A stretch of DNA of 64,000 nt from a phage. The stretch lies in assembly GCA_020619395.1 (NCBI GenBank), contig GCA_020619395.1_4860.1; one strand, given 5' to 3'. Positions 33,884-35,956 of this stretch are shown piece by piece. The stretch's first letter is position 1. Every line of letters starts with the position of its first letter. Both the position numbers and the translations under genes were made by a program. Under the pieces are notes generated by a model, which had not been told where the DNA came from, did no database searches, and worked only from the letters and a program-made list of their open reading frames with translations.

Positions 33884-34399
33884 TTAGATTTTAACTAGCT
33901 TGCTCCAATCGATGGGTTGTTGCTTAACCACTTTAACGGTACCACGTGTCGGTGACCAGAAGGTGATATCAGGCTGGTTGCGTACGTCAACATGCAACCA
34001 GGTAATATCGCACTCGATAAAGTGAATAAACGGAAACTCGTTAGGGTTCGCGGCAATATAGTCGTGTACTTTCTGCAACGGAGTATCAAGCATTGTTGCA
34101 TCAAACGCATTACCGAATTTATGCATACTGCCTGATTCGGCGTACAGTTTGTTTGCACGAGTTTGCCAATCTCCACCCTTTGGTTTCTCTTGATTAATAA
34201 AGAACTGCAGGGTACGCAGACTACGCTGTTGCTGGGAACTGGTTAAAATCACCATCCGCCCAAAACGATTACGAATCTGTTGGAGCGAGATTAGCAGTAA
34301 CGGATTAAGGAAACGAATAGCACCTTCACCGTATTTCGCGATGTACTCCTGCGGCATCAACTCTTTTAACGCGAAGTTGGCAGGATTCGGATGAAACAT
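33884..34399 (-). CDS. peptidase M15-like zinc peptidoglycan peptidase (171 aa)
   Basis: SMHKFGNAFD fits SxHxxGxAxD; downstream WLHVDVR gives the third His ligand. Confidence 0.65.
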   Translation of the reverse strand: MFHPNPANFALKELMPQEYIAKYGEGAIRFLNPLLLISLQQIRNRFGRMVILTSSQQQRSLRTLQFFINQEKPKGGDWQTRANKLYAESGSMHKFGNAFDATMLDTPLQKVHDYIAANPNEFPFIHFIECDITWLHVDVRNQPDITFWSPTRGTVKVVKQQPIDWSKLVKI

Positions 34400-34408
34400 T
34401 TTTTCTCC

Positions 34409-35050
34409 TTAAGGGGCAGTCAGGAACGCACGTTTGATATTCAAATACTGCACGTTTACCGGTTGCCCATTAGTAATGTCAACACGTTCGTGTTCAGGAA
34501 TCGCTAACGTACGAGATGTTCTAAAGAACAGGTAGTTGCGATTATAGGACAACGTCTTTTCTACCGGCCGGCTATAAACCACCTTAGAGTTATCGTCTAC
34601 ATAGGACGGCCAACCAAACTCGTGAACGGCATGGTAGAAGGACTTACGAATAAAGGTGTCAACGCCTAATGCCTCCATGATGCGTAAGAACATCAGGTCA
34701 GCGAATGTTTTGTCACATGCACGAGATAGATTACCTTCGACAGTGTCAGGGTAAAAGCCTACCGATGAACGTTTCTGGTAAAACAAATCATGCACACAAG
34801 CGGCAGCGGCCCAAGGCCCATCCGGATGCAGGATAGGACGTAACGCTTCTGGAATGCTTGCCAGGTCCGTCACAAATCCTCTCGGTACCGTTACCCATAA
34901 CGGGGTATCCGGATGCACACCTGCTAATGCTACCATCGCATCCATTCCGGTCTGTTCACGATAGAGGCTGCGCAACGTAAACTCGAAATGGAAATCATCC
35001 GTGAGGATAAACCACGGCTTCTCTAACAACGTATACTTAAGTGCTTCCAT
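34409..35050 (-). CDS. DUF1353-like protein (213 aa)
   Basis: FVTDLASIP and AACVHD motifs recalled from this family; assignment tentative. Confidence 0.4.
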   Translation of the reverse strand: MEALKYTLLEKPWFILTDDFHFEFTLRSLYREQTGMDAMVALAGVHPDTPLWVTVPRGFVTDLASIPEALRPILHPDGPWAAAACVHDLFYQKRSSVGFYPDTVEGNLSRACDKTFADLMFLRIMEALGVDTFIRKSFYHAVHEFGWPSYVDDNSKVVYSRPVEKTLSYNRNYLFFRTSRTLAIPEHERVDITNGQPVNVQYLNIKRAFLTAP

Positions 35051-35057
35051 ACTGACC

Positions 35058-35150
35058 TCACGTCATATAACGCACGAGCATCGTGAGGACCATTAATCCC
35101 AGTAAAATGGACATTAAGCCTTTCGGCCAGTCGTCGTTGTCGTATTGCAT
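35058..35150 (-). CDS. small membrane peptide (30 aa), holin-like candidate
   Basis: RBS ggaggg; MQYDNDDWPKGLMSILLGLMVLTMLVRYMT has one TM segment; below ORF-track size cut-off. Confidence 0.3.
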   Translation of the reverse strand: MQYDNDDWPKGLMSILLGLMVLTMLVRYMT

Positions 35151-35240
35151 GGCTTTACCCTCCGACAGAAGATCGCGCGTAATAGTTTGAAGAACCCAGA
35201 ATCGTAATACGTTTCCGGAACGGTTTGTACTTCGGGGAAC

Positions 35241-35342
35241 TTAGGCGGAGTTGGACGGTGGGTCATTACGTTTTCTCCTTGCGGCAAAAACAAGGGCGCG
35301 CCAGATAGCTTTCATTAAGGCAGCAAACCAATTCTGTTTCAT
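35241..35342 (-). CDS. small ORF (33 aa) with hydrophobic segment and basic tail
   Basis: start overlaps lysozyme stop (ATGA); MKQNWFAALMKAIWRALVFAARRKR..; weak RBS. Confidence 0.3.
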   Translation of the reverse strand: MKQNWFAALMKAIWRALVFAARRKRNDPPSNSA

Positions 35343-35956
35343 TTGCACATCCCCAACTTAGCCACGTAGTCTGGCATTTCCTGATAGACGCGGCCATACC
35401 AGCCGTAAGTAAACTCTTCGTTATCCTCACGCCCTTCACTGATTTCCGTGTAGTACGCAACCTGATGACAGGTTAAAGCGAACATCAGTCGATTCAGGCC
35501 CTCTTCCCCACGGGCTTTGATGAAGCCTTCTAACGCTGTTAACGTACGTGGCCCGATACCACCATCGGCATCGATATCATCGTATAGTTTACCCTGACGG
35601 TTTAATACGTTCAGAATACGTTGCAGGGACTTGATACAGTTACCGCGTCCTGCGTTGATGCCGAAATCAAACATTCGGTCAGCTAGCAGGACATTCATTT
35701 TCATAATCTGGTCTAAACGCATCCGCTGCCACCAGAGCTTGTTGTAAATGTCTAACGCGATTTCTAAGCTCAGGTCACGCATATCCCCTTTATAGCCATA
35801 TTCGCGCGCAGTGAGTTCGGTGACACCACGGTTCGTTGCTTTGCCCAAATCTTTCGGGTTATTAACGTAACCGGCTTCGATGTTTACTTTGGCACGAATA
35901 ATGCCCTCTTTACTCCAACGATCGACCACGATAACCTCCTGAGTTGATAGGGTCAT
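35339..35956 (-). CDS. GH108-type muramidase with peptidoglycan-binding C-terminal domain (endolysin candidate)
   Basis: EAGYVNNPKDLGKATNRGVT matches the GH108 EGGYVNDP..GG.T..GIT motif; C-terminal TYGWYGR region; start taken at ATG 35956. Confidence 0.65.
   Translation of the reverse strand: MTLSTQEVIVVDRWSKEGIIRAKVNIEAGYVNNPKDLGKATNRGVTELTAREYGYKGDMRDLSLEIALDIYNKLWWQRMRLDQIMKMNVLLADRMFDFGINAGRGNCIKSLQRILNVLNRQGKLYDDIDADGGIGPRTLTALEGFIKARGEEGLNRLMFALTCHQVAYYTEISEGREDNEEFTYGWYGRVYQEMPDYVAKLGMCK

Follow-up and report, generated by a model that had tools for sequence, protein, structure and literature searches.

Three very small open reading frames (ORFs), here called A, B and C, lie between a muramidase (endolysin) gene and a DUF1353 gene in a 64,000-nucleotide stretch of phage DNA (contig GCA_020619395.1_4860.1 of GenBank assembly GCA_020619395.1), the whole of which is referred to as the window. 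Comparison with related phages shows them to be protein-coding micro-genes, three in number and coupled in translation. The products are predicted to bind membranes, A and B as cationic amphipathic helices and C as a single-pass peptide. With a probability a little short of even, these peptides permeabilise the inner membrane, by which the muramidase would reach the wall and perhaps a phospholipase A2 (PLA2)-like enzyme, the DUF1353 protein, its substrate. The small-ORF sequences are not new; what is new is their reading as a conserved micro-peptide lysis module on the SPN3US-like endolysin, beside a PLA2-family gene.

Three micro-genes and their products

The original prediction, made from the letters of the window, had picked out these ORFs as unannotated candidates for holin, antiholin or spanin-like components, and the coordinates it gave for them were exact (Table 1). 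Small ORFs alone are uninformative, because dozens of 20–60 amino acid (aa) ORFs occur in the same 5 kb, and the test is comparison, here of the region with its homologues in five further genera or lineages. All three are retained as peptides in SPAsTU and pEa_SNUABM_29, which are more distant Seoulvirus relatives, and A and B are retained in phiEaH2 and Asesino. Between lineages, nucleotide identity within the small ORFs is 58–77%, and the proportion of synonymous differences (pS) is saturated at 0.67–1.05, compared to 0.08–0.29 for the nonsynonymous ones (pN). The dN/dS of the small ORFs is 0.06–0.34 where dS can be estimated, and differences at codon positions 1, 2 and 3 number 25, 10 and 44 (p = 1.6e-5, independent contrasts). 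This is purifying selection in each ORF's own frame, and A, B and C are therefore genes. Each start has a Shine-Dalgarno site or an ATGA overlap. The ribosome-binding sites (RBSs) originally claimed for all three were found for B and C, whereas A is coupled through the overlap with the endolysin stop, an arrangement retained in three lineages. The A/B overlap is 26 nucleotides (nt) and the B/C overlap 37 nt, with a change of frame each time.

An origin of A, B and C as accidental open frames in a spacer, or as the remnants of one frameshifted gene, is scarcely credible. Of course, chance alone yields many short ORFs, the three lie in different and overlapping frames, and gene finders seldom call B. 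Against this stand the strong selection seen frame by frame, a start signal for every small ORF, the conservation of the peptides in four genera despite saturated synonymous sites, and a natural in-frame fusion of B and C in Machinavirus that preserves both peptide parts. Chance ORFs and a pseudogene are effectively refuted by the dN/dS and codon-position analyses. A structured RNA was also ruled out, since an Rfam scan of the region at E <= 1 matched no RNA family. A programmed −1 frameshift, from B into C or from the endolysin into A, was rejected by inspection, the overlaps being without a slippery heptamer. In SPAsTU and pEa_SNUABM_29, B ends in RRVAP with an ATGA overlap onto C; since B stops at that ATGA, a B–C frameshift fusion is impossible there.

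The label “unannotated” is right only in part. All three already exist as gene calls for a “hypothetical protein”: many GenBank records include C, B is called in Lh1B and EC001, and phiEaH2 and Asesino have annotated A-type ORFs. A is assigned to phrog_25143 and the Machinavirus ORF to phrog_26367, both of unknown function.

Peptide A has a net charge of +6 (+5 to +7 in homologues). Its residues 3–24 are predicted to be helical and largely hydrophobic apart from a narrow polar stripe (N4, K11, R15 and R22), and RRKR comes next. The basic tail had been noted correctly, but the hydrophobic part does not amount to a classical transmembrane (TM) segment: its Kyte–Doolittle (KD) hydropathy of 1.1–1.4 is under the threshold for a transmembrane domain (TMD), and A is by these predictions a cationic helix. 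Its hydrophobic moment is 0.53, compared to 0.55 for melittin on the same scale. The polar stripe falls at identical helical positions in four lineages. The same positions are kept in a 34-aa homologue, MNWFAKLLALLWKALTSGRKRKDEKRGQEFFWFL, from an uncultivated clade of ~220 kb phages; it is found on ~400 contigs, and its start again overlaps the muramidase stop. A tblastn search of 50,697 phage records gave homologues of A in the SPN3US-like clade only, and a phmmer search of 1.84 billion representatives gave only its own clade and a spurious repeat protein, P0115. In a word-indexed search with B, matches were confined to its own cluster.

Peptide B joins a variable, acidic and, as had been noted, proline-rich N-terminal part to an invariant-looking cationic amphipathic core, SGFFKLLRAIFxRRV (SGFFKLLRAIFCRRV in the window). 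Its net charge is +6 in the window and +2 to +5 in relatives, several of which fall below +4, and its hydropathy (KD 0.3–0.7) is under the TMD threshold. The final 13 residues, KPCNTTTTTGRKA, are a lineage-specific, non-conserved run-on across the start of C.

Peptide C consists of an acidic N-tail (10 residues, with DNDDWP), a single TM helix, as originally proposed, with a KD(17–19) of 1.9–2.3 over residues 12–29, and a five-residue C-tail, VRYMT, with one basic residue. From the positive-inside rule its topology is probably N-out/C-in. At codon 14 (35109..35111) the window has serine (LMSILL), compared to proline in all of the ~35 GenBank relatives, and the exact Ser14 variant is present on two public contigs only. 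The TM and lipobox predictions proposed as a check on the small ORFs gave a TM helix in C only and a lipobox in none of the three; A and C have no cysteine at all. The selection on these ORFs and the properties of their peptides thus uphold the proposal that they are genes for predicted membrane-active micro-proteins.

A module around the endolysin

Over 2.5 kb around the cluster, nucleotide identity is 99.4% to Salmonella phage 1252 and 96% to SPN3US, and by this comparison the window is part of an SPN3US-like, phiKZ-related jumbo phage of the genus Seoulvirus. The SPN3US counterparts are numbered gp156 for the muramidase, gp157 for the DUF1353 protein, gp158 for the 171-aa protein and gp159 for the lipoprotein encoded convergently. 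The order on the minus strand is the tail-fibre-like gene, a hairpin, the GH108 muramidase, A, B, C, DUF1353, the 171-aa gene and a bidirectional terminator. The six genes between the hairpins are tightly packed: neighbours either overlap or are no more than 9 nt apart. The single minus-strand run described originally is thus one unit between two terminator hairpins, and judging by this layout A, B and C, the endolysin, DUF1353 and the M15-fold gene are one terminator-bounded, late-type operon.

Table 1. Coordinates of the cluster, its neighbours and related features (window positions unless stated otherwise)
Feature	Position	Strand	Remarks
Lipoprotein gp159, 163 aa	33267..33758	+	phrog_9559 (unknown function); lipobox LLAGC/V
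175-aa protein	32616..33143	-	DUF7941 domain match
Bidirectional terminator hairpin	33761..33791	.	13 bp stem; closes the unit and the convergent lipoprotein gene
LAS/M15-fold zinc peptidase (gp158), 171 aa	33884..34399	-	predicted from model and zinc motifs
DUF1353 protein (gp157), 213 aa	34409..35050	-	PF07087 match; PLA2-like family (predicted)
ORF C, 30 aa	35058..35150	-	GGAGG 8 nt upstream
ORF B, 50 aa	35114..35266	-	AAGGAG 8 nt upstream
ORF A, 33 aa	35241..35342	-	ATG overlaps endolysin stop as ATGA; MKQNWFAALMKAIWRALVFAARRKRNDPPSNSA
GH108 + PG_binding_3 muramidase (endolysin, gp156)	35339..35956	-	profile match
Terminator-like intrinsic hairpin	35967..35988	-	9 bp stem, then CTTTCTTTTT; 3' of the tail-fibre-like gene; upstream boundary of the unit
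Tail-fibre-like protein, 725 aa	36035..38212	-	N-terminal DUF7941 and GP38 adhesin-like Gly-rich domain
Three overlapping small TM ORFs, 34, 67 and 43 aa	SPN3US 171588-171997 (L022:21588-21997)		~200 bp beyond window position 1
N-TMD protein, 156 aa	SPN3US NC_027402.1 180017-180487 (pair at L022:30017-30976)		outside the window; short helix and Pro-rich tail
Lipoprotein, 159 aa	SPN3US 180497-180976		outside the window; LLTGC/P; 10 nt downstream of the 156-aa protein gene
Lipoproteins of 32-45 aa after GH108	loci L147, L148, L154-L156, L161, L167, L169, L171, L173, L174, L176-L178, L180, L182		

The small ORFs travel with the muramidase. The related genera share a common backbone of radical-SAM genes, DUF4376, a slot and DUF1353. 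This slot holds a muramidase and one or more small ORFs in Machinavirus, Wellingtonvirus and the uncultivated clade, is empty in Cronobacter phage CR5, EarlPhillipIV and L186, and contains an unrelated 143-aa gene in L184. Since the contents of the slot vary while DUF1353 stays, the small ORFs belong with the muramidase and not with DUF1353. The gp158 gene follows DUF1353 only in Seoulvirus, Derbicusvirus and L184, and is absent there in Erskinevirus, Machinavirus and Wellingtonvirus. As far as gene order can tell, the muramidase and the peptides behave as an insertable module, and the DUF1353–gp158 pair would be an older backbone into which the endolysin and small ORFs were inserted separately.

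In Machinavirus the slot carries a single ORF of 38–52 aa, and the longer ones (Caitlin, pEa_SNUABM_8 and L027) join B(1–27) to C(4–30) in frame, as ...PPVFPDVQVIREEYKFF / DDDDPPPFVLWG... and the TM segment. Compared to this fusion the window has 47 extra nt (2 mod 3), made up of the amphipathic core of B, an RBS and the start of C, and the indel accounts exactly for the difference in frame between B and C. By Rosetta-stone reasoning, the fusion suggests that B and C act together at the membrane. In Wellingtonvirus the slot holds an unrelated TM peptide of 33–37 aa. Such varied subsets (A+B+C, A+B, a B–C fusion, an unrelated TM peptide) suggest a generic, easily replaced membrane-perturbing role and not a specific protein–protein lock.

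What follows a GH108 gene elsewhere was surveyed at 77 other GH108 loci (IMG/VR), counting a gene that starts within 80 nt of the muramidase stop. At 26 loci the next gene codes for a TM protein of 100 aa or more, at 11 for one of 50–99 aa, at 16 for a lipoprotein of at most 60 aa and at 4 for a short TM peptide. Together these TM proteins and small lipoproteins account for 57 of the 77. This suggests that the slot is the usual seat of lysis accessory genes (holin-, spanin- or lipoprotein-like), and, with the shared operon, it bears out the lysis-type placement in the original prediction. At 16 of the 77 loci the endolysin is followed by a lipoprotein of 32–45 aa (...LFSGC TAHTINNN...), just after position 2004-2007. 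From its sequence it resembles a free-standing o-spanin-like or Rz1-like gene; no i-spanin was sought.

Some further features surround the unit. The gp159 gene is convergent with the cluster and shares its terminator, and homologues of gp159 lie on the opposite strand after DUF1353 in phiEaH2 and Kwan. The absence of a C-terminal TMD from gp159 rules out a u-spanin. In the other genera, too, the cluster lies between paralogous DUF7941 genes. The motif TTTTTATGACCC (35950..35961, minus strand) lies directly after the terminator hairpin, upstream of the muramidase. It is also found upstream of DUF1353 in CR5 (L016:2462-2480), with a further site at L186:1300-1320. The window has a single exact copy, and mismatched copies occur at the chance rate; the motif may mark a late promoter of the phage or the point where transcription begins.

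The endolysin matches GH108 (E 9e-18) and PG_binding_3 (E 6e-19), and the DUF1353 protein matches PF07087 at 63 bits (gathering cut-off 22.5; E 2.1e-17), which confirms both family calls made for them originally. The endolysin has neither a signal nor a signal-anchor-release sequence (maximum KD19 0.68). Its longest ORF starts at ATG 35992 and the usual annotation at ATG 35956, both inside or just after the upstream terminator hairpin. Because GTG 35929 has AGGAGG 5 nt upstream and orthologues start there, the true start is probably GTG 35929, which would give a muramidase of 196 aa.

In the DUF1353 protein, H87 and D118 do not vary across 52 sequences, in which D88 is conserved to at least 90%. 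Its AlphaFold2 model (pLDDT 94) has a PLA2-like helical core with a His-Asp pair and a downstream Asp, and we infer that D118 is the equivalent of D85 in TtaP. Biochemical work has shown TtaP, a DUF1353 protein from the typhoid toxin islet, to be a phospholipase A2 with a His/Asp dyad, and it adjoins a GH108-type muramidase, TtsA (PMC11525133). The window protein, which has no signal peptide, is a predicted member of this PLA2-like family, in which activity has been shown for TtaP only. A GH108 gene lies within 3 kb of DUF1353 at 15 of 80 DUF1353 loci, all of them jumbo-phage loci, and adjacency of the two as a general rule was therefore rejected. In smaller phages DUF1353 is found between tail-fibre genes and holin or endolysin genes; this placement is probably the source of the database label “tail assembly chaperone”. 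In an unrelated 149 kb IMG/VR contig (L118:1507-2519), GH108 is followed by a 129-aa DUF1353 gene with overlapping stop and start. Immediately upstream of GH108 at L149 there is an ORF whose motif VPAGYIV is DUF1353-like, and no profile search confirms it. The TtsA/TtaP-type pairing recurs beyond SPN3US-like phages at least in L118.

For gp158, the M15-like call of the original prediction stood despite a Pfam M15 score below the cut-off, because it is supported by the LAS fold of the model (pLDDT 94) and by invariant zinc motifs, S-x-H93-x2-G-x-A-x-D100 and W-L-H136-V-D138-x-R (H93, D100, H136 and D138 invariant). Compared with PDB sequences, the DUF1353 protein and gp158 gave nothing useful by sequence, and fold comparison was needed. 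The gp158 protein was detected in SPN3US virions and not in tailless heads (PMC5105663), so it may be a tail-associated cell-wall peptidase for entry and not for lysis. The presence of gp158 in virions, the PLA2-family identity of DUF1353 and the insertable endolysin/small-ORF module all go beyond the original prediction, and the PLA2 link raises the interest of the cluster.

A predicted membrane step in lysis and its rivals

No hydrophobic N-terminus was found in the endolysin, the DUF1353 protein or gp158. The SPN3US RefSeq record (NC_027402.1) has one annotated endolysin and no annotated holin or spanin. Enzymes that lack an export signal, in a phage with no annotated holin or spanin, need a membrane step, and A, B and C may supply it. 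The peptides would accumulate at the inner membrane and permeabilise it, as the equivalent of a holin, with C as the integral component and A and B as melittin- or disruptin-like helices. The permeabilised membrane would then let the muramidase reach the peptidoglycan.

Several observations weigh against this. C has no charged cytoplasmic C-terminal domain such as known holins possess, and its 30 aa are, to our knowledge, below the size of any validated holin. The hydrophobic moment of A is reached by 718 of 5000 (14%) shuffles of its own composition. Its amphipathicity, being unexceptional compared to shuffles, was dropped as statistical evidence, and the argument rests on the conserved stripe pattern and not on the moment value. 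No small ORF is universal in the clade, Erskinevirus being without C and Machinavirus without A. Part of the operon may not concern lysis at all, gp158 being virion-associated. Also, SPN3US has other holin-like candidates, such as a 67-aa protein with two TMDs and a charged tail (171679-171882). This protein has a class II holin-like topology and is found only in Seoulvirus and Erskinevirus. A recognisable holin elsewhere had been named as a point that would tell against the original prediction; none is recognised in SPN3US, but unrecognised topological candidates such as this one exist. There is also a candidate spanin pair at SPN3US 180017-180976, spanin-like in its arrangement and conserved in all related genera, in that tblastn finds homologues of the 156-aa TMD protein in Seoulvirus, Erskinevirus, Machinavirus, Wellingtonvirus and Derbicusvirus; both proteins carry the annotation “hypothetical”. 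Compared with PHROGs and Pfam, the SPN3US TM candidates match no holin or spanin family, only PHROGs of unknown function.

Other roles for the peptides can be set beside this inner-membrane role. A and/or B could be disruptin-type cationic peptides, analogues of phiKT gp28, whose target would be the outer membrane, weakened by them as lysis is completed. They have the build for it, at 27–50 aa, charged as described above, helical, amphipathic, free of a TMD or lipobox and adjoining the endolysin, and they fall within the candidate limits of the disruptin paper (fewer than 80 aa, charge at least +4). This is nevertheless rather unlikely. SPN3US-like phages all carry the candidate spanin-like pair, with which a substitute for spanins may be unnecessary; the slot has no A- or B-type cationic helix in Machinavirus and Wellingtonvirus; and there is no sequence similarity to gp28, though gp28 is without homologues anyway. 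The position of the small ORFs immediately upstream of DUF1353 in one operon raises another role, as cofactors of the PLA2, either tethers and interfacial activators or inhibitors until lysis. TtaP is thought to need activation or spatial restriction (PMC11525133), and A is melittin-like, a hydrophobic/amphipathic 20-mer followed by RRKR. The small ORFs, however, co-vary with the endolysin and not with DUF1353, which has no small ORF beside it in CR5, EarlPhillipIV and L186, directly follows GH108 in L118 and has another upstream neighbour in L184, and a cofactor role is unlikely.

Equally improbable is a role in the timing of lysis, in which the peptides would be antiholin-like or lysis-inhibition factors that act on a holin from another locus, such as the 67-aa protein. 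Topological holin candidates do exist elsewhere in the SPN3US genome, the phiKZ lysis cassette has an extra small regulator of its holin, and a set of small ORFs that varies among genera is typical of accessory regulators. Yet the 67-aa candidate is restricted to two genera and small ORFs are found in every genus with an endolysin in the slot, and no holin or antiholin family gave a match. It is very doubtful that the peptides are membrane micro-proteins unrelated to lysis, acting in superinfection exclusion, modulation of host transporters or virion assembly. Small TM ORFs with no assigned role are numerous in jumbo phages, the cluster adjoins a lipoprotein gene whose function is likewise unassigned, and gp158 of the same operon is virion-associated; but several lineages preserve the translational coupling to the endolysin, and the slot holds lysis-type TM or lipoprotein genes in 74% of the other GH108 loci.

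Permeabilisation of the inner membrane by A, B and C can be taken a step further, to a “venom-like” route of lysis in SPN3US-like jumbo phages, instead of or on top of the holin–spanin pathway. This extension is speculative and quite unlikely as a whole. Here, melittin-like A and B together with the tiny TM peptide C would breach the inner membrane from inside. The breach would release the signal-less GH108 muramidase and would activate the cytoplasmic DUF1353 PLA2 through membrane recruitment and/or calcium influx, and the activated phospholipase would digest the phospholipids of the envelope. If this were true, the same GH108 plus DUF1353 logic would explain the role of TtaP beside TtsA in typhoid toxin release.

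For the missing membrane step in lysis by the nucleus-forming jumbo phages of the SPN3US type, A, B and C are the candidates that suggest themselves most directly. If they do perform it, peptides of 30–50 aa would be smaller than any validated holin, or else only the second kind of disruptin. Cationic peptides acting with a muramidase would also be of practical interest for engineered lysins against Gram-negative bacteria.

Comparison with known systems

Canonical holins (lambda S105, the phage 21 S68 pinholin, T4 T and the phiKZ class III holin; PMC12894885) are membrane proteins encoded beside a signal-less endolysin, as is predicted for A, B and C. C has one TMD in a small protein, and in A a strongly basic tail comes after a helix. 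However, validated holins exceed the peptides in size and end in a charged cytoplasmic domain, whereas C ends five residues past its TMD and the RRKRND tail of A follows a helix that is not predicted as a TMD. When compared with the Pfam and PHROG holin families, A, B and C match none; they have no Pfam match and only PHROGs of unknown function. The phiKZ cassette of holin, regulator, lytic transglycosylase, i-spanin and o-spanin is not conserved here, and the paper that describes it does not mention SPN3US or Salmonella or Erwinia phages (PMC12894885).

Spanins (lambda Rz/Rz1, T1 gp11) also follow the endolysin directly and often have overlapping genes in different frames. Unlike them, A, B and C have no lipobox, no periplasmic coiled coil and no N-terminal TMD with a long ectodomain; their overlaps are short and end-to-start, with no embedded gene of the spanin type; and the TMD of C is C-terminal after a 10-residue N-tail, opposite to the layout of an i-spanin. 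Having no lipobox and no ectodomain, and being far too short, the peptides are not spanins, and this part of the original prediction fell.

Outside phage lysis there are several peptides of similar build. Melittin is a 26-aa hydrophobic/amphipathic helix that ends in KRKR and acts with PLA2 in bee venom. TisB and Hok, type I toxin peptides of ~30–50 aa with a single TMD, depolarise the inner membrane, and the Pf3 coat protein is a 44-aa N-out peptide with an acidic N-tail, as in C. We know of none of these as a phage lysis component, and the likeness is one of analogy only, with no homology found.

The TtsA/TtaP islet, like the cluster described here, co-encodes the GH108 and DUF1353 families, both without obvious secretion signals, and has a proposed role in moving macromolecules across the envelope (PMC11525133). 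It differs in several ways. The toxin islet is not described with small peptide genes between TtsA and TtaP; TtaP has 125 aa, compared to 213 in the window protein with its extra N- and C-terminal parts; and the islet exports toxin without killing most cells, whereas the phage lyses the cell. The DUF1353 neighbour nevertheless links the cluster to the question of what TtaP does beside TtsA.

The closest parallel may be the disruptin of phage phiKT. Its gp28 is, like A and B, small, cationic, helical, free of a TMD or lipobox and encoded beside lysis genes; it binds membranes and has been likened to antimicrobial peptides (Holt et al., bioRxiv 10.1101/515445). A (33 aa, +6) and the B of the window (50 aa, +6) share its small size, positive charge and helicity, the helix in their case resting on the hydrophobic moment only. 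Of course, gp28 is unrelated to them in sequence. At 56 aa it is hydrophilic and has three basic clusters, whereas A is mostly hydrophobic and has one; phiKT also lacks spanins, in contrast to the candidate spanin-like pair of SPN3US-like phages. By analogy, then, A and B appear most like the phiKT disruptin gp28 or antimicrobial peptides.

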